Below the pieces are notes generated by a model. It did no database searches, was not told where the DNA came from, and saw nothing but the letters and a program-made list of their open reading frames with translations. From assembly GCA_001938485.1 (NCBI GenBank), contig MQRK01212633.1, forward strand, positions 1 through 61,787: a stretch of 61,787 bases of DNA. The letters are read 5' to 3'. The stretch comes from Girardia tigrina. Lineage: Eukaryota. Shown here piece after piece: positions 19-61,787 of this stretch; position 1 is the first letter of the stretch, and each line of letters opens with the position of its first letter. The position numbers and the translations under genes were made by a program.

Positions 19-277
19 TCACTCACCATCAATGTTTTGAGGTTCGATTGAAATGTTCTGATTATTTAGATTCACATGTCGCATTCTCTCCATCTCATTG
101 AGAGCTCGTTGATTGCACGACTTTTTGCCTGTGAGCATTTCACAGCATAGCTCTTCAATTCGTAGTCCTTCCAAGGATCGGAGTCGGCTCAGCGCGACGT
201 AAGCTTGTCCATCTGCGAAGAGACGTGAGCCGAGATAAACGACTGCTTGGTCCACTGTGCTGCCCTGCATTTTGTGC
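19..277 (-). CDS. PIF1-family (SF1B) helicase C-terminus, probably Helitron Rep-Hel or another TE-borne PIF1; upstream part lost in N gap
   Basis: [38 protein letters not shown] matches PIF1 motifs V/VI (HKxQGxT...GQxYVALSR). Confidence 0.85.
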
Positions 278-1059
278 NNNNNNNNNNNNNNNNNNNNNNN
301 NNNNNNNNNNNNNNNNNNNNNNNNNNNNNNNNNNNNNNNNNNNNNNGGAAATTGAACTGATTTCGGTTCGATGAGATGAATTCCGTCGCGGCCGAAGTCA
401 ATCTTGGTTATTAAATGTTTCACTCTGTATCTATTTTGGTGGTCTGTATTGAAAGCCGTTAGCATTACTGACAATCTAAACTCTTCATCGAGCTCATTTT
501 GTCGGTATATTCTAAATTTTCAACACAGACCAACAAAATCTCGCGTCTTAAATTGCGTGCAGAATTATTTTTGACTGAATTTCCAAAGCCTACTATTACT
601 ACATGCGAAATCTCATTCGATTTGGAAATTAAATTTAGTAAATTTCAAAGCCTACTACTAAGAAAAGCATGAGAACGGCACTTTATTGACTTTTTACGGA
701 CAAACTACTGACTGCAGGAAAACAGTGATAATGAAATAGTGTATTGTCATCTAGAATACATCACTCCTGAAAATTTCAAGTCACCAGCACAACGGGAAGT
801 GGGTGAAATTTCGATCGCAAGATTTGATCCATACAGACAAACAAACAAATGAAACGTAATAAACGCTTGTAAAAAACAAAATTAACCGTATAAACATTTA
901 ACTCAGAGTAAGCACATTTGTTTAGAATAGAATACGATAACCATTTGCGGCTGTGGGTCGAAAGGAGCAAGATATTAGCATCAAAAAATTTAGTTGATAC
1001 ATTTTTTAAGATTTAAGCGTTTGGGCCGTGGGTGCACTCAATTAGGCACAAGCCTTTTG

Positions 1060-4750: not shown

Positions 4751-5490
4751 ATGAATGATATGAAAATCGTTTTGGAATTTTTAGAGAAATTTGATGGAAG
4801 CATCAATTTCGAGATTTGGCAGAAGAAATTTGAAATGATCATGAAAATCCAGAAGATTACTGATCCAGCCCCGTATCTCCTTTCTTTACTATCGGGGGTT
4901 GCACTGAACATCTATATGGAATCGAACGAGAAGACGCAAAGCAGCTGCGATAGGTTCTTCAAGATATTAAACAATTCGTTCGGCCTGACTAGACGTTCTG
5001 CGTACGGTCAATTAATAAACTTACAATATCACGATGTCGAGAATATCGATGAATATGCGTCTCAGGTGAAAATGTTAGCAACAAAGGTCAACGATCTAAC
5101 AAAGGCTGCATTCATGGCTGGACTGCCTTTCGAGTTGCAGGTGGATTTCGAACGGGCCGGCGACCAACCCCTGACCGAAATGATCGAATATAGCCGCAGG
5201 TATTTGGGGATTAAAAAGGGTTTATTACAGGGTTCAATGGCAGCAATACAACACGGAAACAACAACAAAGAAACACGGAGTTCCGGAGGTCAGAGCGAAC
5301 TCGCTAAACCAAGAGCAAATCTTCAGAAAGGACCCTATGTTCATCGTGAGAGAGACACTAAATTGAAGGAAGTAATCATCATGAGGGTTCTCAGTGGCAA
5401 TCAAACAGACAAAAAATATGCTAAAAATGTCTGAAACCGGGTCATATCGCAAAATATTGTCGGTCGGGAAACGAACAGGGGAGTTTGTAG
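4751..5490 (+). pseudogene. Gag with frameshifted CCHC zinc knuckle
   Basis: EKFDGSINFEIWQKKFE...LLSGVALNIY...ENIDEYA...AFMAGLP. Knuckle C*KCLKPGHIAKYC at about 5419-5460 lies in a shifted frame. Confidence 0.8.
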
Positions 5491-5507
5491 GCGCCGGCTC
5501 TCTCCCT
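5466..5507 (+). promoter_or_regulatory. Putative -1 programmed ribosomal frameshift signal (gag-pol)
   Basis: Slippery heptamer G GGA AAC (5466-5472) in the knuckle frame just before the gag stop TAG. The -1 frame reads GKRTGEFVGAGSLP into the protease. A G/C-rich stem (ggggag...ctctccct) starts about 5 nt downstream. Confidence 0.65.
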
Positions 5508-5775
5508 TCACAGTTGCAGGCATTGCCGACGATATTCGTCACCGTAAATGACAGGTCAGCCACAGCATTGATTGATTCTGGTTGTTCGAAAACGGTTGTT
5601 TTAAAAGGGTTAGTTAGTGATTGTATGTTGTTTTCAGGCGGAGAAAGTATGGTTTTGGCGAATGGAAAGGGTGTTAGAGTGGGTTCGGGTGAAGTGCAGT
5701 TGAATATAAATGGTAGGATCATTAGGGTGGAATGTTCGGTCATGGAACATTTGCCGTATTATCTAGGGATCTTAA
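5466..5775 (+). pseudogene. Retroviral-type aspartic protease
   Basis: VTVNDRSATALIDSGCSKTVV (catalytic DSG). Confidence 0.9.
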
Positions 5776-5784
5776 CAGGTAAGG

Positions 5785-7320
5785 GATGAGCTGGATGTAG
5801 AATCAATTTCACGTCGTGAGTTATATTCGTTATGTGGACAATTAGTAGGAATACATCCGGTAGCTAATTGGCTGCGTCCGTCATGTTCATATCTTAAACG
5901 ACTTAGTGAGGGAAGGTGGGATGAAAAGATAGACGAGGAATTATTCGAGAAGATTAAATGGGTTTTAAAGACAGTGAGAGAGAGTGATCCTTGCAGAGGT
6001 TTATGGGCTATTGATGACTGCAGGGAATGTATTATATGGTGCGACGCAAGTTCAATAGCCATTGGTGCGGCGTTAGAAGTCAAAGGGAACATAATTGAGG
6101 ACGCATCATGGTTGAGAAAAACTGATGATTCTAGACATATTAATGTAGCAGAACTAGAAGCAGTTGTAAAGGGTTTAAACTTATGTGTGAAATGGGGTTT
6201 AAGGAGCGTGATAGTAAAATCGGATTATAAGTCAATAGTTTTGTGGGTAACCACAACAATCTCAGATCGCGAAAAATTAAATACCAAGGCTTCATCTGAG
6301 CTTTTAATAAAACGAAGACTGTCGATGATCAAGGAGCTGTGTCAGGAGTATGAGATCGAGTTGAAGATCGAGTTTGTTAATAGCAAATCTAACAAGGCAG
6401 ATGAGTTGACAAAAATGCCAAAACAATTAAAAAGAAGCAATTGTTTTTTATCGGTTACGGACGATCTACTCAAGCTTCAGCAACTTCACGATAAGTGTCA
6501 TTTAGGAGCAAACAGAATGCGATATCTATGTGCGATGCAAGGAATAGGTGTGTCAAACGCGGATATCAAGGATCTGATTTAAAGATGTCAATCCATTGAT
6601 CCGACACCCGTAAAATGGAAAACCGGTAGGCTGAGTGTCAACGAAAACTGGACAAGACTTGCTGCGGATGTTACAATGTAAAATCAACAAAATATTTTTA
6701 GTGTAATCGATTGTGGTCCTTCTCGCTTTGCGATATGGAAATTAATAAAGGCTGAAGACGTCAAGTCAATTGTCTCAGAATTCTCAAGTTTGTTCTGTGA
6801 ACGCGGGTCTCCCAAGGAANNNNNNNNNNNNNNNNNNNNNNNNNNNNNNNNNNCAGAATTCAACAAACTGATGGAAAAGTGGAACGTTCGAGTCATGTAT
6901 CGTGCCATCAATCGACCTAACTGCAACGGAATAATAGAAAGAAATCATAGAACAATCAAAAGAATTGCGTCCAGATCAAATATCAGCATTTTAGAAGCCT
7001 TATGGTGGTATAATAACACGCCATCTGAAGGAAAAGAAACACCAAGCTCGGCGCTATATAGTTATTTGCTCATAGGGTTAGATATAATCGAAAGAAGTGA
7101 AAAGGAACCGTTCTGTGGAAATCCAGATTATTTTGAGAATCAATTAGTGTAAGTAAAACCGGAAAACAGTACACCATGTACACAGCAATGGGCCAAGGGT
7201 GTTGTCGTGAAAAGAATAGATCAAAGGAAATATCTAGTAAATTCCAACGGATTTTGTGGTCCAAGACGTATCGCAGACATTCGACCTAGACAGCCTGACT
7301 TGGTTGAAAATTCCAAGTCA
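5785..7320 (+). pseudogene. RT connection, RNase H and integrase
   Basis: SRRELYSLCGQLVG; WCDASSIAIGAALE...HINVAELEAV...KSD...NKADEL; LHDKCHLG; RLAADVT; VIDCGPSRFAIW; NGIIERNHRTIK...YNNTP. Confidence 0.9.
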
Positions 7321-7499
7321 TACTATATGAATATGTAGGAAAAAATAGTTCCGGCATTTATTAGTTACAAATATTACTCTCAATTTTAAGCCAACAGGTG
7401 TTCGATGTTCTAAAAATCGTTTTGAATTCTTTTGCTCTCTCTGAGAACGGTAATTTTAGATTTATAGTCCTTTATCTCAAATTATAATCAAATGACTAT

Positions 7500-7893
7500 C
7501 AATCTCAAATTACCATACTCAGAGATAGCAAAAAAATTCAAACGATTTTTAGAACATGCAGGAACTATTTTTCAAACAAATTAAAAACTCCTTTGTGTAT
7601 TAAGGCAAATCTAGTTTTTCAATTCAAATGTCACAAGTGCGAAGCCTTGTACATTGGAGAGACAAGTCGTCATCTCCGCACTAGAATTGCTGAACATACT
7701 CAATCGAGTAGAAATAGTTCGATATTGAGCCATATTAAAAAATGTAATGGTAATCTTATGGATTACAATAAAGATTTTAAATAATTTTGACACAAATTAT
7801 GAAAGGATTATTGCCGAAGCATTGTTAATAAAGCATCATAAACCATGCTTAAACGTGCAAGGTGATTCATCTAATCATATTAAAGTTTTTTAA
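7500..7893 (+). mobile_element. PLE GIY-YIG endonuclease remnant
   Basis: FSNKLKTPLCIKANLVFQFKCHKCEALYIGETSRHLRTRIAEH...ERIIAEALLIKHHKPCLNVQ...IKVF* (CCHH-type GIY-YIG). Confidence 0.9.
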
Positions 7894-19489: not shown

Positions 19490-20330
19490 TTATTCTACAA
19501 AACAATTTCGTTTACTTGTGAAGCTCAAGTGGACATTGTATAGGACACATTTATTATGTATCCTATTTTCTATATGTCGTTTTGCGCAATTTACGCATCG
19601 CTTCAGTTTTTCTGATTTTTCCATGTTGTGCGCTGGCAAATTGTGTTTATTTCCAATGCAGAGCTTTTCAGAGGAGACTAAAGTGGGTCTTGATTGCTGT
19701 CTACATGTAATATTATTTATTAGACCTTCTGCCTTCATGTTGGAGATACTCGAGGCTGCTCAAAAGCGGACTTTCTACTCAATGTTTTTCGTGCAACTTT
19801 ACGTACAATAAATATGAGTTATTCATAGTGATATTTAAGATGTCAAAAAAGAGGCGTAGGTAATATTTGATTTTGTCTTTGCGATCAACCTTATAACATG
19901 CTTTGCGCTGGTCCATAAGGTCCACACCGTCCATATATATTTATTATGGCGCATTACTACTTCCGGACATGCAACATTCAATTTTTGAGCAGTTCCTATC
20001 AACCTCCTCTTTACTGTACAAGTTGACACCCAAATGTTTATTTGCAACATATCATGCCGATCAGATAATGTATTTATGCGCCCAAAATCCTACTCACTTT
20101 CATTGAATGTGTGAGAAGCGTATGAATTATTTTTCCAGTTGAGAATAGGAATAGTCTCTGAAGTATTTGAACAGGTGGGTAATGAGGTTTGACTTGTTGG
20201 TTCTTGAACAGAATCTTCAATTTCAACAACATCGGTTCCATTTTCTACATCTTGAGCTATGAACTGTAGGTCTTCTTCGTCTAACTGTAATATCTGCCAT
20301 AAATAACTGCAATATTTATTCATCTTATAT
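19490..20330 (-). pseudogene. piggyBac transposase relic, internally deleted and frameshifted
   Basis: Acidic N-terminus; CPEVVMRHNKY/MDGVDLMDQRKACYKVDRK..KYYLRLFFDI (third catalytic D region); Cys-rich domain RCVNCAKR...KCVLYNVHLSF...RNCF. Confidence 0.85.
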
Positions 20331-20920
20331 ATGAAATTCTCTGCACTCTCTTTTAAGTATTTCTGTAATAAATGTAGGTAAATTCTATAAAAATATAAGA
20401 AAACCATACATTATCACTAAGCACTTGTTGGGTGTGATATTATTAGTGCTGGATTTTATATGATTATTTTAATTTTATTAATTTAAATTTATTCGTTTCA
20501 TGGTATGCTTTAGCATCTGAGTTTATTTTGACCCAACATATTATTTAGATATGTCTCTCCGCTAAGTGTCTCTAACTCACACTTATTAGAGATCCATATC
20601 GTACCCCATCAACCTCACCTAGACCTTTTATCTCGCCAGTGAAGTTGATGAAGTACCTATTGGGCTCTACATGATATTTAAATATATTAGGTCTATGAAA
20701 GTTGACTTATGCTACTTCTGTTTAATTAATTGATTATCTTATTTTTACCTCAACATGTTTCTTTTGATTTGATTATTATATTTCTTATCATGATTTTATC
20801 ATTTTCATACGAGAGATTAAAGTTAAAAGAACATGAACAATTATATGTAGACATTGTTTAATTAAAATATAACAAGAAAACAAAAGAAAATGCTAATCAA
20901 AAGCAATCCACCCATCGTCC

Positions 20921-21700
20921 TTAGTCATCCAAATCTGATAGATTTACAAACTCTTCACCTTTACCAGTTGTAATAGAGCGGAACTGTAGGCGGTCACGAT
21001 TCTCCTTCTGAATTTTAAGTTTTGACTCGAGGTCCACACATTCCTGTTGTTCTATAGTCTCTTGGAAATTATTTATTGGGAAAAACAACAAAATTTGATT
21101 AGAGGTATCAAAATCAGAAGACTCTCTTTGACTGGAGTCATTTCTGATTACAGTCTTTCCATCTAGGACGTCAACCTCAATACGACTGGTTTTAAAAACA
21201 GCTTGCAGATCACTCTTGGCATGTTGAAACATTTGAGCTTTTCGATTCCTCTGCTCACGCCGCTTCTCGGATCTACTGAGCACTCCAGAGGAAGATGATG
21301 CCATATCCTCTTTCATAATTGACCCATAAATGTTTAGATTAGTCACCAGAGGTTTCTTTTCCATATTTGATCCAATCTTGCTTGCTGTTTCTAGAATTAT
21401 TTCCGGTTGTTCTTCTGAGACTTTTTCGATAACCTTCTTGTAATAGCTGGACATATTTTGCTGAATTCTCATCTCGGTGACCTCGTTTTGCAAGGACTTA
21501 ATTTTTTGTTGTCCTAACAAATGTTTGTCCACAACCGGTTTATGAATTGATAAAGGAACTGAATGTTTTCTGTAGTTCTCAAATTCGGTTGTCCTCTTCA
21601 TCAATTCATCATTTAGCTTGGCACAATCGTCTTTCGATTTCTGCAACTCCAGCAGCAGTTCTCTTTCTTGCTCTTGGCTTTCATTATTTTTTCTATTCAT
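20921..21700 (-). CDS. Intact 259-aa orphan protein, N-terminal coiled coil and basic patch
   Basis: ATG-to-TAA ORF without disablements in very AT-rich DNA; heptad-like E/K/L/Q-rich N-half; SRSEKRREQRNRK. No family recognised. Confidence 0.65.
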   Translation of the reverse strand: MNRKNNESQEQERELLLELQKSKDDCAKLNDELMKRTTEFENYRKHSVPLSIHKPVVDKHLLGQQKIKSLQNEVTEMRIQQNMSSYYKKVIEKVSEEQPEIILETASKIGSNMEKKPLVTNLNIYGSIMKEDMASSSSGVLSRSEKRREQRNRKAQMFQHAKSDLQAVFKTSRIEVDVLDGKTVIRNDSSQRESSDFDTSNQILLFFPINNFQETIEQQECVDLESKLKIQKENRDRLQFRSITTGKGEEFVNLSDLDD

Positions 21701-21826
21701 GATGAATAATGGCGATGAGTGGATTACAATAAAAAAAGAAACAACACAAAAAATAATTGAGGGAGGCTGAGAGAAACGAATTCTCTCCTAGAAATGAAAC
21801 TTGGTAAGGACTTACTCAAACTTCCA

Positions 21827-21990
21827 GATTGTCAATAGTCTCGGCAGGCACTATAAGCACCTGCCGTTAATCTATTAACAGATCGGCAGTCATCAAATTA
21901 CCTCAAAACCTGTTCATATTCCCTACCTGATTGTCAATAGTCTCGGCAGGAACTATAAGCCCCTACCCTTATCTATCGACAGATCGGCAG
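21827..21990. repeat. Two-copy tandem repeat (about 62-bp unit, period 102) with hairpin potential
   Basis: gattgtcaatagtctcggcagg.actataagc.cct.cc...atctat..acagatcggcag at 21827-21889 and 21929-21990. Confidence 0.9.
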
Positions 21991-22623
21991 CGTTGAGGAT
22001 GTTCCCCAACCTGTATCAACTTCAAAAAAATGAAATAAAATCCAAAAATTACCTAAGTACAAAACAAAGTTTTTTAAATAAAATTTATTCAAAGAAAAAG
22101 GTCTGATCAAGTGCACAAATTCGGATGAATTTATACCAATCTTTCGTCACAAAAACTCACAGAACCAGCAAACAGACAATTCTCACAGTCAACCTTCAAT
22201 CATCCTTTCCTCAGATAGAAACAACCCGGAGATGGCCAAAATTCCGATCAAACCAACGTCAAAAAATCAGGCCATCAAATTCTCACAAGAAAATATTCAA
22301 ATCGACAGGATCCAAGGGTCAAAACCAATTAAAAGTTTCTCTCTTTAATTAATTAATTATAAATTATCATTATAATATTTTATTTTTCGTTTTTTAGATT
22401 TAGGGAGTTTTTCCTTCGCCTGCCTCGGTGTCGGTGCAATGAATAGGCCCGAGGCTGACGTGAAGGAAACACTCACTGGTCCCAACACACTACTATAATA
22501 ATACTTCAAAGAATACACCAGGTATGGACCAGAGGGAAAAATATTTCCTTTAGATGATTTGAAATTTTTAGGTACTTGTTCTAATATTCTGCCGTTTACT
22601 GTATTATTATATAAAATTATACT

Positions 22624-23031
22624 TGTGAAGAATGTTTTTGAATGGTGTTTATTGTGTGTTGTTTGGTATGTTGTTTTAGGATTGTGTTACTCCCACCCAG
22701 ATGGAAGATTTATATTTTAAATATTTTAAAACGTCGGGTTGTTTAATCAATTATTAAAATTTAAATAATCACTTTAAAATTAAACTAATATTTCATAAAT
22801 AATATTTTAATAATATTTTCTTAAAATAAATAAAAATTATTTCAAATTTAAAGTATAAATTATATTTTAATAATTAAATTTGTTTGAATAATAAGACGTT
22901 AAAGAATATTATTAAAGATTATCAATCAAGAACGATGACGAGCTACGCAAGTTTTACGGAGAATTGTTCTAGTGGCAATTCGAATTGTGATATAAATAGA
23001 TGTAAAGAAAACTCAATTAATGTTCTTAATA
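22624..23031 (+). mobile_element. Solo LTR (408 bp, TG...TA)
   Basis: TGTGAAGAA...TTCTTAATA with perfect TSD ATACT (22619-23 / 23032-36). Confidence 0.9.
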
Positions 23032-24694
23032 ATACTTACCAAATAATATAAAACATGTGAACATTTTATTTTCTCAAGTCCAAAATACCGTCAAGATTTT
23101 ATAAATTCAGCCAGCGAATGTTTTGGTTTTGGCACAATAAAATTTAACAGTTATTTTTTATTCGTTTAGAAACACATTTGTCGCCTTGGACATATGGTTT
23201 ATTTTGACATTCACTAAAAAAAATATCGATTCGATAATAATTGAACAATCGATAATGATTTTTATAGAAGGGAAAATTATTTCCCTTGAGCATTTAAAGG
23301 GTTAATAAAGATTTCAGTTTATGATCGAAATTTAATTTAATCGAAATGCAAAAATCGACAATCACAAAGAAGGAATCATAACTTCAGATTATAACTACTA
23401 TTGTTTAGTACTTGTAATGGAACATCATCTTCTTGAAACAATACTATTTTAATGAAGGATGGATCTGAAATAACCTTTGTGAATTAATGATTTTCTTTGA
23501 TGGAACAAGTTTATAAAAAATGCGCTGTCCAAATATTAAGGGGTCTCTTAGAAATTTTTATAAATTATACAAAACAATGATATACTTCAATTAAAAAAAA
23601 TTAAAATATTAAAAAGCGCAATAAAAAAGACAAGATTTAAAATCATATAATGTTTGAAATTAATAACAATAGGAAGAAAAGCAAATTGTAAGAAAAGGAA
23701 AGAGAAAATTCAAAGGAAAATATTTCTTTTTTTTTCTTTTATATTTTTATTTCACAAATTTCTTTTTTCGAAGAATCGAAGAATTTATTGGAAGATATTT
23801 TTTTCAAAAACAGTATGATGATTTAATGGCGGCAATTATTATAAATTCTTCATCGAATTTCTTTATTATAAAGACAAAAGAATACATTACATTCATATTG
23901 ATTTGTATTTTCTCTTATATTATTTTAACCTTTTCCTTTGAGCTGTAAATACTTTTAATATTTAAGAAATATTTAAAATATAAAATAATTAATAAAATAA
24001 AATTTCTCAAAGAAATAAATTTATTACAAAACATTTTGCAGTTTTACAAACGATTTTTTACACTAAGATTTTTTAATTTAAATTATTATTATTTACATAT
24101 TTTCAATTTAATTTATTGATATTTTTATTGATTATTTTTTTTTAATATTTTTTTATTCTTTTAATTGTACTTAACATAAATAAATAATTTGAAATTCATG
24201 ATTTTTTCGGAAAAAAAGTTTTTACCTAACTTGTATTTTTTAAGTTACTGGAACACTGTGTAAAAAAAAGCAACGTAGTTTCCTCTAAAATAATGTGGAA
24301 ATTTATACATCTTTGTATGAAGCAAGAGAACGATGTCTAAATTTTGAAACTTTTTTTATACCAACGGTGCGTTCTGATGTTTTGGTGGCGGCTCTTTCTA
24401 AAACTGTGTAGCAGAATTGGCAAAGCTTTGGACTGTTTATCCCATGATATGAGACATGATCTTGGTTTAGATTGATGTGAGAAAACATGAGTTTCGTTTT
24501 AATATACTTTTTAAATAGTCAGATTAATAATCATTCAATTTTGTATGAGAGGAACCCCAGATGTGTATCAATCCTAAATAAGGTTGATCAAAAGGTTTAT
24601 GACACAAATCTTCCATCCAAGAGATTTACACTAAATACCTAAGTCTGAATCTTGCTTAAAGTAAGTGATGACTTGTTCCATCAAAACTTCGTAT

Positions 24695-30555: not shown

Positions 30556-31979
30556 TAGCGATTCCCAACCTTTTTTGATCGCGGACCGGTAAAATTATAT
30601 TAATTTCTTTGCGGATCGGTCAGCATACATATTTAATATAATACTTGATGCATACTATATAGATATCATATATACATAAATTTAATAAATTTAACATAAA
30701 TTTTATTTAAAAATTGCAGTAGGACACAAAATAAAACACAATACAATCAGATCGATTCAATGTGAAATCTGCTGCTGCTTTTTATTTAAAATCTTCTCAA
30801 TGCACGACTGTAACGATGTTTCAGATGTCAAAAAAGTTCTCTCTAAGTTAAACAAAAATGATTTATGTTGAATTGATGTTAACAAGTCGTAGTTATATTA
30901 TCTATGAAAAATATAAACTGGCATTTAAAAAAAAAACAATTTGTTGGCGATGGTTTGATTGATATTGTTGAGTTCTTTCTTTTTGGTTTTGTATTGCCTT
31001 TTTTTGGATTCATATTCTTCCGTGGCTCGGAGTTGCTTCCAATGATCGGGGTCATCGTATTTTAGTTTGATTGGATAATTTTCAATGAGATCGCCGTTTT
31101 CACTTTTGATGTTAGTGGCTCTGAATGAAGGGGTAGTTGAGTCGGCTTTGGCAACAGCAATGGCACCGTGCTTAATCTTCATATCTTTGTAGAGATAAGG
31201 GATGTGGGATGATGTGGCTTGGATTTGTTTCCAGTCGAGTTTGTAAGTTTTGCCGGATGCATCGATGGAGCGGCCGAAGCCTTTTAATCTGTTGAAGAAA
31301 ATGACGGTGGATGTGATTTCACATTGTACGACTGTAATTGAGATATTGTCTTTTTGAGATGGAGCAGAGCAGCATTTACTTGAAGTCGGTTTCGATATTT
31401 GGTTTTAATAGCCGACATGGAAGAAAACGTTTTTTCGCAAAGTTATATTGTCGCAAAAGTAATCAAAAGCTTCATATCCTTTTCATTGAGCATTGGATAC
31501 TCTTCCCTTACAGAAATCCAGAACTGTGTCAAAGACATTGATTTAAAATTTGTTTCTAGGGTGCAGTCAGCCGACAATTCAATGAGATTTTCCTTCTCCT
31601 TTGGTGTAAGTTTCATGGAGTTAATGTGTGCTAAAGGATCTTTATCTTCAGGGTAATACTGGTCAAAGTATTTAACCAATGCCTGCAGATGCTGACTTAC
31701 TACACTGCAAATAACTGTTCGGTTCAAGTCAGTAGACATCAAATAGTCATCCAGAAGGGTAAACATCGGCAATTCCTTTTTTCGTTAAAAACTGCTTCCA
31801 CAATAACAGTTTATTTTTTAAAGCTTCCACCTTATTCCAAAGTGTGAAAATATTCGTCATCCTTCCTTGGAGAGACAAGTTGAAATTATTGAGAATTGAG
31901 AATTTTGCCAAATTAATATTTTGATGTAAAGTTCAAATTGTCAAAAATTTTTACACGGACCGGCGGTTGGGAATCGCTA
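30556..31979 (-). mobile_element. hAT (Buster/Charlie) non-autonomous deletion derivative
   Basis: Perfect 15-bp TIR TAGCGATTCCCAACC and perfect 8-bp TSD CTCTAAAG (central TA). Transposase C-terminus LNNFNLSLQG...LIELSAD...FWISVREEYP...FATI*LCEKTFSSMSAIKTKYRNRL (31360-31900) resumes as ETSLQ...QQQISH* (30757-30823). Confidence 0.95.
30925..31357 (-). pseudogene. Divergent cold-shock-domain-like ORF within a 531-bp insert (30828-31358) in the hAT element
   Basis: The frame is open well upstream of the track's ATG: EITSTVIFFNRLKGFGRSIDASGKTYKLDWKQIQATSSHIPYLYKDMKI...FRATNIKSENG, followed by a charged tail. Confidence 0.55.
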
Positions 31980-35590: not shown

Positions 35591-35733
35591 AAGTTTATAT
35601 TTGTAAAATTGACAATTAAAATTAAGTTAAATATTTAAAAAAAATAAAAGCATTTAATTTTATTTAAATTAAATTCATTTAAAAATTTTATAAATTTTTC
35701 ATTATTTTTATTTTAAATTTTTATTCATACTAT

Positions 35734-36159
35734 TATTAAGAACATCAATTTGACTTTTCATATTTTTATTTACACAACAATTCGGATTGTCCTTAAGACA
35801 ATCTTTGTCAAAGCTTTCGTACGAGTGCATTCTAAACTAAATTGATTAATTAATTAATTCTTATTATTTTTAGCAAAAAGGAGACATAAATAATTTATTA
35901 AAATATTTACTCAAAACTTATTCGATAGAAATTAAAATGATTATTAATTATTTTGATTTATTTATTAAAAATTGTAAAAATTAATTAACTTATTTAAAAT
36001 TGTACCATTATTTGAATTTAAAAATAAATTTAAATATTACATATTTTTAGATAATAAGAATTAAAATATTAATCATCCATCTGGGTAGGAGAGACACATT
36101 TCCAAATCAACATACAACATTCGGACACAAAACATCAAACATTCAAAATATTCCTCACA
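35734..36159 (-). mobile_element. Solo LTR (426 bp, TG...TA)
   Basis: Minus strand TGTGAGGAA...TTCTTAATA with perfect TSD ACTAT (35729-33 / 36160-64). Confidence 0.9.
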
Positions 36160-36224
36160 ACTATTATTTTTAAATAATGTTTTTAGAAATTTTAAAAAGA
36201 TTTAGAAAAATTGCTCGAATAATC

Positions 36225-42842: not shown

Positions 42843-44988
42843 TTGCAGAATCATTGAAACATTTCCAAGTCTCAATTTTTATCTTCATGGTTAAAAATTT
42901 TATCTCAAATTGCAAGGTCTCCTTCTATGTTGCACTTGACTGACGAACCAAACATCGACGTAGTAAAAATCTAATGTGAAAATGAATAAATCAACTGGAA
43001 CAACGTTCTGTAAATTATGTGATAAATGATAATGGAATTCGAAAGACATTTCAGTTTAAATGTTTAATGACGACTTTTTGTTCATACTCTTAGTACTAAT
43101 TAGGTCAAACATAGAACATGAAGTCGAAATGTTCGCCCTTACTCAAACTATATTTTCATCATTATCAATGTATTTAAAGGCATTATTATTTTAAAAACAC
43201 TTAAAACATTAATGACTAAATATATGATATAAGTACTAAAATAAACGTAATTTAAAATGCTTTGCATATAAAAAATAATCTTTTTCAGATATCATGTCTC
43301 GCGAGTGAAATATAAGTTGAACTACTTTCAGTTATTAGAAGATTGTTATGATCTCATTGCCTGAATGGAGGTTGTGACTTTTATCAAAGAAAAAGAATGT
43401 AATTCAATAACAATAGATTGCCATTAGTTTAATAGGGGGTACACAGATAAAATTTTATTTATAATAAGACCATTGATAAGGTACGTTAGTTGAATATTAT
43501 CTTACAAGTATTTTTCTAATTTATATGCTACGCATTTTTAAATATAACAAATTTGTTAGAAACAGAAATTATTATATTTTAAAAATAATTCTGTAATTAA
43601 AAACTCAACCAAGATTGAAATCCATTCAAAAGTAGAACACCAATTTATATGTAAACTTAAATCATAATAGATACAAGCTAAAATTTTGATAGGTAATTAT
43701 TGTATGGTTTAATTTAAATTAAATTAATTTATTTATGGGAATTTAGTTAAATAACACCTTTCTGGCGACATAATCTTTAAATGACTTAATAAACCCCCCT
43801 ATGTTTTCACCAAAGTAAACGGATTTCTAGGAAGCCGATAATATCGAAGAGTTTTAAAGTATCAAAATTTAAGTTATTATATGAGTCTAATATATGTTAT
43901 GGATCAAGCAGGATCAGAAGGTTGTTGATCAAATTCAATTACATTCTCCCGGCCTAGTGAATCAAAAATTTTGGTAAACTCTAAATCATTCAATTGTGAG
44001 GATCTGGCGTACTCTTAAAACTTTTGACTATTTAAAATAAGCAAATATCTAAAATCAAAAGTTCTTGAAACGAGTTTTAATTAAAAATATCTCTAATTAA
44101 TTTTAAAAAGTAATTCTCAAAAATAAATTTTATTTAATAAAAATGTAATTTTTCAATAGATAATTTTTCAAGTATTAAAGCCATTTGAAAATGAGGTAAA
44201 TTTAAAATTATTTGTAAATAATTAATTTTTTAATACAGTTGATTTTTTTTTTAAAAATAAAACAACTATTAAAAATTTTATAATTAATATATAAATATTT
44301 GTAATTATAAATTAAAATTTATATATGGATATTTATAATAAAATTTTGATATCTGGTTTTGTGCAAAATAAGAAAATATTGTTTCTCGTAAATTTATTTG
44401 GAAATAGTTAAATTTCATAGAAATAAATATTTGGTGTTATGAATCCTATTCTTGACCACGGACCCAACATCAATAAAATGACTTTCAAGTTTCAAACCGC
44501 GATAGATGGTTCGAAAAATTATTTAGACCGAAAACAATCTCGCTAGAGTGAAATATTGCGACATCACCTTTAAAGTTGTCCTGATTTCCCAAATAAGTGA
44601 GCGATTCTATAATACAAATGCACTTCATAAGCAAATGGATAAATCTGACGTGTTTTGCTTAATCACTTTTCGCCCGAGATTCTCGACTTGTTGATCTTGT
44701 CTTCAAGAAACCAATATTTATCAGCAACAACATTGTTTTCCCCTCAAACAAACATAATTCGATTAAAACCAGCGGTAATGACTGTTAGAAAGAATAGTCC
44801 AATAGGTCCGTAATGATAGTTTTAAGTGTAATATTTTCGTGTTAATGGATGCTTTATTTGTCGGTAAAAATCAATATCAACATATTTTCTAGTGTCATAT
44901 CCACATACTCCATTAAATGTCATTTTTAATTACATTTTTGTAAATCGGCAATTAGAGAACGGATGAATATTTCGAATTTCCACAGATT

Positions 44989-45560
44989 GTATGTTATTTT
45001 AGGATTGTGTTTCTCCTGCCAAGATGGAAGATTGATATTTTGAATGATTTCAACCCTCGGATTAATCCGGAAATTTCGAAATGTAAATGACAACTTTAAA
45101 TTAAATTAATTTACTTTCATATAAATATTAAAAAAATGACGATAATGAATTTTTAAAAGTCAAAAAATTTTCGTCAGAATATATTGTGATTAATTTCGAC
45201 GAATCAACCGTCATCATCAGACTGAATTAAAAATGATATACTCGCGTTTATATATTTTTTTTAATTTACTTTAATCAATAAATATATAATAATATTTTAA
45301 TAGTCGATTGTAACACAAAAATTTATTTAATCATGGATAATGTATTTCAAATGATTTAAAATATTTTTGAAAATAATTTTTAAATATTTTAGTAAGAAAT
45401 TGTAATTTAGATTTGTTCGAATAATTAGAGGTTTAGAAATAGAATTAAAATATATCAATCATTTTAAATGTTTAACTACAAAAGTTATATAGAGAATTGT
45501 CCTGGAGGCAAGGCGAGTTGTGATGTCAATGAAAGTATTGGAAATCAGTTCAATGACTAT
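44989..45560 (+). repeat. LTR-family copy, 5'-truncated, interrupted by an antisense PLE pseudo-LTR
   Basis: gtatgttattttaggattgtgtttctcc...agatggaagattg (44989-45060) and the 3' block 45410-45560, with the hammerhead at 45188-45220 between them. Confidence 0.65.
45188..45222 (-). ncRNA. Minimal hammerhead ribozyme motif, intact catalytic core
   Basis: CTGATGA T GACGG-TTGAT-TCGTC GAAA TTAA TC; AUC triplet; palindromic ATTAAT at stem III. Stem I is weak. Confidence 0.75.
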
Positions 45561-47575: not shown

Positions 47576-48183
47576 GTTGAATTAACAAAATAATCTTATA
47601 TATAGCAAATTGATGATTATGCAAAATTTATTATGAAAATTCTAATATTAGATATACTCTAATCGTTCCTTATTCGGAAGGTTACTAAAAATTTAAATCT
47701 TCTATTTTAAAATCAATCGATAGAAAAAATTTGAATTTAAAAATTATTTCTAAATCTTACAATATTCAAAGTATGTTCAGCAATAAATCTCGTACTCCTT
47801 TGAGTTTATGTTCCAATCTGGTTTATCAATTTTCGTGTAATGGGTGCAACGCTACATACATTGGAGAGACGTCTCGTCATCTCTGCAAACGGATGCAGGA
47901 GCATGGACGATTGAGTAATGGGAGTAATAGTGAAGTAACATATGAAGGGTTGTAGATCGGAGGTGAAAACAACTAATTTTAACATATTGTGCAGTAATTT
48001 TAAAAATTATTGGGAAAGAGTTACTTGTGAAGCATTATTGATTAAATCACTTAATCCGTCCATTAATGTACAAACAAGTCTCTCTTTCTCTTTGTCGAAA
48101 ATATTTTATTAGTTATTACACAAGATGTTTGCATAATCATCAATTTGCTATATATAAGACAGCGAAATTGTTGTTTATTCAGC

Positions 48184-58622: not shown

Positions 58623-59020
58623 TATGGAACACAATAATTGGATTTTCAATACATTTACTGATTCCACAACATGAATTGCCACTAGGACAATTCTCAACAA
58701 AAGTTTTGTAACTCGTCATCGTTCTTGATTGATAAATTTTTAATTCTCTTTCTAAACATGTTATAAATTTAACATGATATAAATTTAAATTACAATTCAA
58801 TTTAAAATTCAATTACAAAATAATTTTAATTATTAAGAAAAAAATTTTAAACATATTATTTATGATATATTAATTTAATTTTAAAGTTAGTTATTTAAAT
58901 TTTAAAATTGAATAAATAATCCGATGTTTATAATATTTAAAATATCAATCTTCCATCTGGGTGGGAGCAACACAATCCTAAAACAACATTCAATAAACAC
59001 CATTCAAAATATTCATCTCA
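58623..59020 (-). mobile_element. Solo LTR (about 400 bp), same family as 22624-23031
   Basis: Collinear with 22624-23031 (ctcccacccagatggaagatt; atcaatcaagaacgatgacgag...ctagtggcaattc); flanks AACTA / AACAA. Confidence 0.8.
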
Positions 59021-59115
59021 AACAACAAAAGTAAAACCATTCAAAATATATTTTTGAGTTTTGAAAGGCAATTAATATTGCATTAAATATGTAATTATCT
59101 CCTAAAATTTAAAAT

Positions 59116-61285: not shown

Positions 61286-61500
61286 TCCACTAGAAGAAGC
61301 TATTACTTCTGGGAGAATAATCTAGTTTCTCCTTTATATGAAGTGTTTTTATTTTCTGATTGGACTGAAGGATCGCCGAATGCGATAAACGATGGGATGG
61401 TTCGGCTTCCTCGATCGTTTTTAATAATTTCAACTTTCCCATGTTTGGAAAAATCGACATAGAATAATGTGGTTTGTAAATAAAGACCGACAGCTGCCGA
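61286..61500 (-). pseudogene. HSP70: HSP70 N-terminal relic with internal deletions
   Basis: AAVGLYLQTTLFYVDFSKHGKVEIIKNDRGSRTIPSFIAFGD|PSVQSENKN|SYKGETRLFS aligns with [41 protein letters not shown]...PxVQSDMK...YKGETKxF. Confidence 0.8.
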
Positions 61501-61787
61501 CTTTTTTTTATTTAAATGGATAATAAAAAAATAGAATTTCAGAAATTAATGATTTATTTCATGATAGTTGCTTGAATATTTACAATTTCAAAAAAGATGA
61601 AAGATGACATGATAAAAATCGTCAGTTAAAACAACTGATTTATTTTTGTAAATAATTAATATAGTAACTTTTTAATATTAGGTTGTTCGATATGAAACGG
61701 GTCAAAATTAAAGTAAAATGTAAATCGATTTTTTTTAAATAATAACATTTTATTTTTAATCAAAATATCCCCCCATGTTGTCAACAC

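Follow-up and report, generated by a model that had tools for sequence, protein, structure and literature searches.

A multi-copy 2-kb repeat of Girardia tigrina, probably a solo long terminal repeat, with a gene for a predicted coiled-coil protein between its ends

What kind of element is a 2-kb stretch of DNA that ends like a retroelement, lacks the recognisable enzymes of one, and holds a single complete gene? The question is raised by positions 20426..22487 (minus strand; 2062 bp) of contig MQRK01212633.1 of Girardia tigrina (assembly GCA_001938485.1); ‘the window’ here means the whole stretch of DNA that was analysed, 61,787 nucleotides (nt) in length. We find that the unit is a real, multi-copy repeat family with its boundaries at the termini. 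It is likely a solo long terminal repeat (LTR), with U3-R-U5 running along the minus strand—an orientation we infer from predicted hairpins and polyadenylation signals—and its one long open reading frame (ORF) encodes a member of an unnamed protein family, for which substitution patterns support constraint.

Boundaries, repeat status and gene of the unit

Reading the plus strand, the unit opens with the short inverted repeat (SIR) TGTTGGG (20426..20432; the putative U5 end) and closes with CCCAACA (22481..22487; the putative start of U3 on the minus strand), flanked to either side by the tetranucleotide CACT as a target-site duplication (TSD; 20422..20425 and 22488..22491). All of these elements stand where a preliminary description, made from the sequence alone, had placed them. 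The inverted repeat stops at 7 bp, with no longer terminal inverted repeat (TIR) beyond it. By itself the terminal pattern is not significant, since the window contains 49 pairs of TG-starting 7-bp TIRs with a 4-bp TSD, spaced 0.1–10 kb apart.

The boundaries are instead carried by sequencing depth. Part of the unit is present in 20 of 24 listed public sequencing runs, and depth along it was examined in four: X1 (DNA), X7 (RNA, by our guess), X18 (a metatranscriptome) and X21. In X1, 10,996 contigs map onto the studied stretch, and summed contig depth (which is not the same as copy number) lies between 156,720 and 953,433 in all 22 internal bins, against 57–436 in all six flank bins; the jump, approximately 1000-fold, falls in the two bins containing the termini. 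Depth is confined to the interior of the unit in X7 and X18 too, giving a step at both ends in three of the four runs; the fourth, X21, contributes merely 14 partial reads that are less than 90% alike, and is uninformative. As X1 matches 279 nt of flank without differences it may be the source of the window, and we do not count it as independent evidence. A step of around 1000-fold nevertheless excludes a single-copy sequence with chance termini, the alternative against which the preliminary description had set its proposal. From the near-empty flanks in X1 we infer that the copies of this repeat family are dispersed.

An internal ACCCAACA (20531..20538, plus strand), also recorded earlier, is present and bounds a 113-bp subunit. 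Although the subunit is there in the sequence, depth does not rise over it, which means that it has not been amplified by itself; with no matching repeat at the other end either, we reject it as an independent miniature inverted-repeat transposable element or short LTR, and a role for it is not supported.

The ORF (P0001; 20921..21700, minus strand) runs uninterrupted from ATG to stop over 259 amino acids (aa), as first reported, and is longer than chance would give: the longest ATG-initiated ORF in 300 shuffles reached 126 aa. A Pfam scan of the open frames of at least 62 codons within the unit returned no transposase, reverse transcriptase (RT) or integrase domain, in agreement with the motif-free appearance noted previously. 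The label ‘orphan’ holds in that no named family matches the protein, but not in the stricter sense, as 40 homologous records were found; none has a credible name and all lie on contigs of 3,072 bp or less. The JGI name ‘sucrose-6-phosphate hydrolase SacC’ attached to one of them, P0002, was rejected, there being no GH32 match in Pfam. Searches of named libraries—Pfam, PDB sequences, Foldseek against PDB and BFVD, and the ESM Atlas clusters—gave no match to the protein: the best PDB sequence was the coiled coil of occludin (E = 0.12), Foldseek returned nothing at E ≤ 0.001 from either collection, and the best ESM Atlas values (0.87 and 0.85) indicate low recognition. A search among proteins of 591–2000 aa found no fused form, which is weak evidence.

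Three subfamilies can be distinguished among the full-length members: A (the window copy, P0002 and P0008), B (P0004 and P0005) and C (P0031), with P0026 perhaps representing a fourth. Identity is 83–88% within A and 41–48% between A, B and C; the homologues begin and end at matching positions. Across the three subfamilies 82 of 252 columns are identical, clustering in blocks at residues 41–80, 141–160 (15/20) and 241–259 (11/19), with an unconserved linker (0/20 at residues 181–200). Differences between P0002 and P0008 avoid the columns conserved in B and C (7/108 versus 23/144, p = 0.03), and the private changes of these two proteins fall at all-conserved columns in merely 2 of 23 cases (p = 0.008), which argues for purifying selection on the family. 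The database proteins derive from short-read assemblies and are probably majority sequences, so the fraction of intact genomic copies cannot be read from them.

Anatomy of the unit and of its protein

The ends of the unit, and the 7-bp length of its SIRs, match the consensus TGTTRNR...YNYAACA described for LTR integrase ends, which is conserved over ~7 bp (PMC3601003); TGTTGGG fits the TGTTRNR half directly. CACT falls in the short (4–6 bp) class of TSD expected of LTRs, as judged from this one insertion. Assignment to the Gypsy clade would rest on these ends and on TSD length.

Working along the minus strand, the SIR is followed by a subterminal hairpin (22397..22481), which has no strand preference (z −3.6 plus, −3.5 minus), and then by a tandem duplication of ~102 bp upstream of the ORF; tandem repeats are common in U3 (PMC3601003). 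Its distal copy (21923..21992) has a predicted hairpin on the minus strand only (z −4.6 minus, 0.0 plus; 5/27 pairs are G-U), and its proximal copy (21820..21892) a long predicted hairpin that is also stronger on that strand (z −7.3 against −4.9). A 5′ leader (21701..21815) then displays splice-site-like signals, identified by eye: GTAAGT at 21815–10, and a pyrimidine tract with AGs ending at 21788 and 21767. We regard these as candidate sites. The reading frame stays open up to 21787, and the alignment with P0004 reaches 21769. Beyond the ORF come an AU-rich 3′ untranslated region and two adjacent long predicted hairpins (20548..20656; minimum free energy −57.7 kcal/mol, z −9.5 minus versus −5.2 plus), resembling an R region or an export element, that lie directly upstream of three AATAAA hexamers (20474..20527, minus strand; 5′ bases at 20527, 20493 and 20479). 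These candidate poly(A) signals sit 49–102 nt from the end of the unit, where the second SIR closes the series. When 44 windows were folded in both orientations, four scored below z = −3.5; none of the four overlaps the ORF, and each has its stronger signal on the minus strand. It is these strand-biased hairpins, together with the AATAAA cluster, that lead us to take the minus strand as the RNA strand. The overall order would resemble that of a U3(ORF)-R-U5 LTR.

One contig of X18 (mean depth 7) matches the unit up to exactly 20426 and then runs on into 39 letters of different sequence, as might be seen if copies had a common interior on the side of the primer-binding site (PBS); no more than one contig shows this. 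The non-coding modules of the unit also recur in contigs of X1, X7 and X18 that carry unlike sequence on the ORF side (with breaks at 21819–21820, 20840 and 21680), which suggests further diverged subfamilies or mosaics. A sigma-70 promoter scan performed at chance level, the model being inapplicable to a eukaryote, and an Rfam scan gave just one sub-threshold match (SNORD2), inside the ORF.

Turning to the protein, the AlphaFold2 monomer model has long helices at residues 3–46, 54–97, 143–171 and 212–239. Modelled as a homodimer, residues 8–84 (21449..21679, minus strand) form a predicted parallel coiled coil, with a model score of 0.54 against 0.00 for the best of three controls, agreement between runs over at least 52% of contacts and a predicted local distance difference test (pLDDT) value of at least 50. 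The model passes the mark used to call a dimer. In the calibration of that mark on solved structures, 21 of 30 microbial pairs and 17 of 29 eukaryotic pairs (7/16 for animals; 1/7 for those lacking an older relative) attained it, and no single chain did (0/23 microbial, 0/30 eukaryotic). The model thus supports, as a prediction, homodimer binding through residues 8–84.

Residues 142–156 (21233..21277, minus strand) form a conserved basic helix, a candidate nuclear localisation signal (NLS) or arginine-rich nucleic-acid-binding motif, that falls in the most conserved block of the family. The protein then ends in an acidic motif, EEFVNLSDLDD (residues 249–259; 20924..20956, minus strand), that resembles a SUMO-interacting motif (SIM). 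Two records were set aside before the motif counts: P0030 (E = 7.6e-5), a repeat artefact, and P0029, a frameshifted fragment. Of the 39 other records listed, 31 have an ending of the form EEF-hydrophobic-SD-acidic, the remaining eight being fragments or having other endings. Shuffling each protein 20,000 times gave the pattern, which was written down after the motif had been seen, 0–3 times. In subfamily C (P0031) the protein ends in FIVLSDSEN, similar to the SIM of Daxx, IIVLSDSD, the serines of which are described as CK2 targets (PMC8616421). From its sequence, this C-terminal motif may bind SUMO; given the departure of subfamily B described below, and a SIM consensus that is itself degenerate (PMC8616421), we treat it as a lead.

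The protein is also marked by features that it lacks: tests for a capsid fold, CCHC knuckle, transmembrane anchor or fusion peptide, GDSL, DEDDy and TRP28 all came back negative. No transmembrane stretch is apparent (the top 19-residue hydropathy is 0.25–0.46 in A and C, 0.7–1.08 in B), and the family has no conserved Cys or His.

Readings of the element and of its gene

We consider an LTR architecture probable, and favour, a little less firmly, the more specific reading in which the unit is a solo LTR from a Gypsy-type family that bears an accessory gene in U3, after the manner of sag in mouse mammary tumour virus (MMTV). The preliminary description had left the choice between a solo LTR and a mobilised gene cassette unmade; the match of the termini and the layout of hairpins and AATAAA now favour the former. 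Under the solo-LTR reading, a full-length LTR-gag-pol-LTR element would have been inserted by its own integrase, duplicating CACT, and recombination between the two LTRs would then have deleted the interior. The ORF, in sense within U3 on the minus strand, would be translated from an mRNA that has its end near 20470 and is either spliced or initiated in U3. Its product is predicted to dimerise via residues 8–84 and to enter the nucleus or bind nucleic acid via residues 142–156, with the two SIM-like tails of the dimer engaging SUMO-modified silencing factors; an accessory protein of this sort would favour expression of the element itself. The substitution patterns would fit a family held under constraint and a copy that has been about neutral since it inserted.

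A number of observations weigh against this account. Neither a paired copy, a PBS, a polypurine tract (PPT) nor a linked gag-pol was found in scans of viral, metagenome and prokaryote contigs, collections that do not contain host DNA, and a scan of metagenomes for the 18-nt terminus gave 20 matches, all 20 of them chance. No dominant loose end appears at either terminus among the 19 of 584 entries listed. In so AT-rich a region AATAAA is weak evidence alone, and the hexamer is also found on the plus strand at 21728, 22034 and 22077, as are TATAA-like words at 21850 and 21952 (by eye); the GT-rich stretch sought after the minus-strand AATAAA within the unit was not found. Coverage in the RNA runs makes no distinction between coding and non-coding parts, and contigs from RNA libraries do not demonstrate transcription. 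For the protein, the monomer model is of low confidence (pLDDT 59.9, predicted template-modelling score 0.27), and the SIM core is not strictly canonical, with F in first position and, in subfamily B, S or P in fourth: an hhXh/hXhh core of I, V or L fits P0031-type ends, fits subfamily A if F is counted as h, and does not strictly fit B. In the window copy itself, all-conserved columns take 5 of 19 private changes (p = 0.63); of the 17 best-supported nucleotide differences in its ORF, drawn from the 40 of 351 entries listed, 6 are synonymous against 27% expected (p = 0.31). It looks to be drifting about neutrally, and the special preservation earlier ascribed to this copy is not borne out. Other searches for relatives were equally empty: those with the family alignment confirmed 0 of 41 viral, 0 of 314 metagenome and 0 of 116 prokaryote genome pattern stretches, and two more motif scans of viral contigs returned no matches.

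The absence of a visible PBS or PPT junction is what an alternative architecture would predict, namely a free-standing, non-autonomous gene cassette in which the 2-kb unit is the whole element, copied and moved in trans by a Gypsy-type integrase, with a regulator as its sole product. Depth that is uniformly high over exactly 20426–22487 agrees with this, as does the confinement of all 40 protein records to short contigs with no longer or fused form among them; LTRs, however, can be expected to end up on short contigs when short reads are assembled, and the collections searched for a junction hold no host DNA. The 7-bp SIRs are also unlike the long TIRs of integrase-type DNA transposons, and the R-like layout of hairpins and AATAAA is present. 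To our knowledge there is no route by which a single-LTR-like unit could be reverse transcribed without a PBS and PPT, which counts further against the cassette, and we judge it unlikely. A descent from Ginger1 or Ginger2 DNA transposons, with the transposase lost and a passenger gene carried, is much less probable still. The TGTNR-like ends and 4-bp TSD are common to the unit and to Ginger elements, but the latter have TIRs of ~40–270 bp (Ginger1) or 50–180 bp (Ginger2) and insert at CCGG or CCGT/ACGG (Ginger1) or an RTATAY site (Ginger2/Tdd), with none of which a 7-bp TIR and CACT agree (PMC2836005); nor is there the excess of depth at both ends that short derivatives would give. Of the Gypsy- or Ginger-type integrase ends proposed at the outset, then, the integrase-type character stands, in its match to the LTR consensus, and Ginger membership fails on TIR length and target site.

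Might the ORF rather be a fragment of gag or env, or the internal ORF3 of a retroelement, caught between chance termini? Coiled-coil ORF3s are known in bdelloid retroelements (PMC5408684), and the frequency of the terminal pattern in the window lends the idea some initial credit. Against this, the depth boundaries fall on the termini, the homologues start and end at matching positions, and there is neither a transmembrane stretch nor any conserved Cys or His. None of ten aligned family members has a gag or env match in Pfam, a result that also speaks against the ‘ordinary gag fragment’ which the preliminary description had raised as a threat to its proposal; we give this explanation hardly any weight.

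As for function, the idea of an element-encoded regulator or anti-silencing factor has gained leads in the basic helix and the SIM-like tail. Whatever the architecture, SUMO-linked chromatin regulation is a serious candidate for the main role of the protein, if one that falls short of an even prospect. Piwi-interacting RNA (piRNA)-guided silencing in Drosophila requires SUMO-dependent recruitment of SetDB1/Wde (10.1101/533091), and herpesviruses deploy SIM proteins against SUMO-based defence (PMC8616421); on these grounds a dimeric decoy or adaptor with SIM tails is a reasonable idea. The fuller version, in which a SUMO-decoy anti-silencing gene moved into a terminal repeat, or an element shrank to an integrase-mobilised cassette of such a gene, seems to us rather unlikely. 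A regulator of the Rev/Rec/Tat type, the dimer of which would bind the element’s own hairpins through the arginine-rich helix and promote transcription or the export of unspliced RNA, is doubtful, if slightly less so. It draws on the basic helix being the most conserved block (15/20 columns), on the four long strand-biased hairpins that flank the ORF, and on the hairpin module at 21820–22030 that contigs of X1, X7 and X18 share, as if kept across subfamilies; but the helix is equally readable as an NLS, there is no sequence or fold similarity to Rev, Tat, Rex or Rec, and the conserved acidic tail is left unexplained. The Rev/Tat-like and SUMO readings are not mutually exclusive.

Surroundings, known systems and what the unit may mean

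The window is AT-rich (19–35% GC) and holds debris of retroelements and DNA transposons. A Gypsy-like remnant at 4751–7338 (plus strand) comprises a gag-like ORF together with frames of aspartyl protease, DUF7047, RNase H and integrase-like type that stops interrupt; an RT frame is missing from the stretch that separates protease from RNase H. Compared with the studied unit by BLASTN, the remnant shows no similarity of note. Its 227-aa gag-like ORF (4751–5434) and 268-codon RNase H frame (5776–6582) are also open, and the earlier statement that every recognisable ORF in the window is broken was thus too strong. GIY-YIG endonuclease fragments at 7488–7781 and 47689–47952 (both plus strand; Pfam E = 4e-4 and 1.5e-3) are likely remnants of Penelope-like elements. 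Closer to the unit, ~490 bp away, lie C-terminal fragments of a piggyBac-like transposase (19490–19940, minus strand; DDE_Tnp_1_7, E = 2.8e-4, below the curated cut-off; a Cys-rich tail was seen by eye); as just this C-terminal fragment scores, a location of the unit inside a piggyBac gene is unsupported. A 105-aa open frame with an acidic stretch stands beside the insertion site (20090–20410, minus strand) and has no Pfam match below E = 0.01. Degenerate AT-rich repeats of 66–79% identity occur in both orientations at 22606–23034, 58631–59021, 35731–36178, 2511–2677 and 44986–45546, one copy beginning ~115 bp to the right of the unit. The sole host-like gene piece detected is an N-terminal HSP70 fragment (61306–61545, minus strand; Pfam E = 8.6e-6). 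Two further frames, without Pfam support, resemble by eye a helicase C-terminal region (19–465, minus strand) and a hAT dimerisation region (30928–31784, minus strand).

Amongst described systems, MMTV, a vertebrate betaretrovirus, offers a parallel in layout, its Sag product being a membrane superantigen. The whole of its accessory ORF (sag/naf) lies in U3, where a U3 promoter can drive it (PMC9412291); the protein of the present unit is instead predicted to be a soluble coiled coil, with no detected similarity. The solo LTRs of animal Metaviridae (Gypsy/Ty3; those with Mag A or CsRN1-type ends) have the same SIRs, a short TSD, AATAAA near one end and tandem repeats in U3 (PMC3601003), from which the unit differs in its 2.06-kb length, in its complete, conserved 259-aa gene, and in that no linked interior has been seen. 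Accessory ORFs of LTR retrotransposons are described as family-specific and of unknown function, some being nuclear and having a promoter of their own: the antisense ORFs of plant Retand and Grande (PMC11963269), the bdelloid ORF3s, some of them coiled coils (PMC5408684), and those of planarian Burro and of Ogre (PMC6431247). The accounts of Retand/Grande, bdelloid and Burro ORFs place them internally, where a solo LTR loses them; in the present unit the gene sits between the two ends, and its protein has neither TRP28 nor another Pfam domain. Ginger1 and Ginger2 share TGT...ACA ends and a 4-bp TSD with the unit, and their long TIRs, specific targets and integrase-like transposase are all missing from it (PMC2836005). 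Overall, in appearance and probably in operation, the unit corresponds to an LTR that has an accessory gene in U3. We found no example of an LTR-encoded ORF in an invertebrate Gypsy element in the open full-text literature, although a Repbase entry could exist.

For an element-encoded factor that acts against host silencing, VANC of VANDAL and the SIM-bearing K-bZIP and ICP0 provide a working analogy (PMC6719617, PMC8616421), without any sequence or fold relationship to these proteins or to Daxx; VANC, moreover, acts on plant DNA methylation. The examples of element-encoded anti-silencing set out in the relevant part of a 2019 review come from plants only, none being directed against the piRNA pathway (PMC6719617), and the later papers on TART-nxf2, as far as their accounts go, concern a strategy at the level of RNA.

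Solo LTRs are usually treated as non-coding relics. If the unit is an LTR with its gene in U3, every product of LTR recombination would keep a complete accessory gene, and a high-copy family could go on supplying the protein after gag-pol has been lost. That protein belongs to a family absent from the named libraries and nonetheless conserved across subfamilies that are less than 50% identical. Were the unit instead a free-standing cassette bounded by 7-bp repeats, it would represent a mobile-element architecture for which we found no description. The SIM-like motif, for its part, bears on the possibility that retrotransposons of animals make proteins that suppress SUMO-dependent silencing: if the SUMO-decoy reading is true, solo copies in their hundreds to thousands would serve as scattered sites of expression for a protein that counters SUMO- and piRNA-directed transcriptional silencing.

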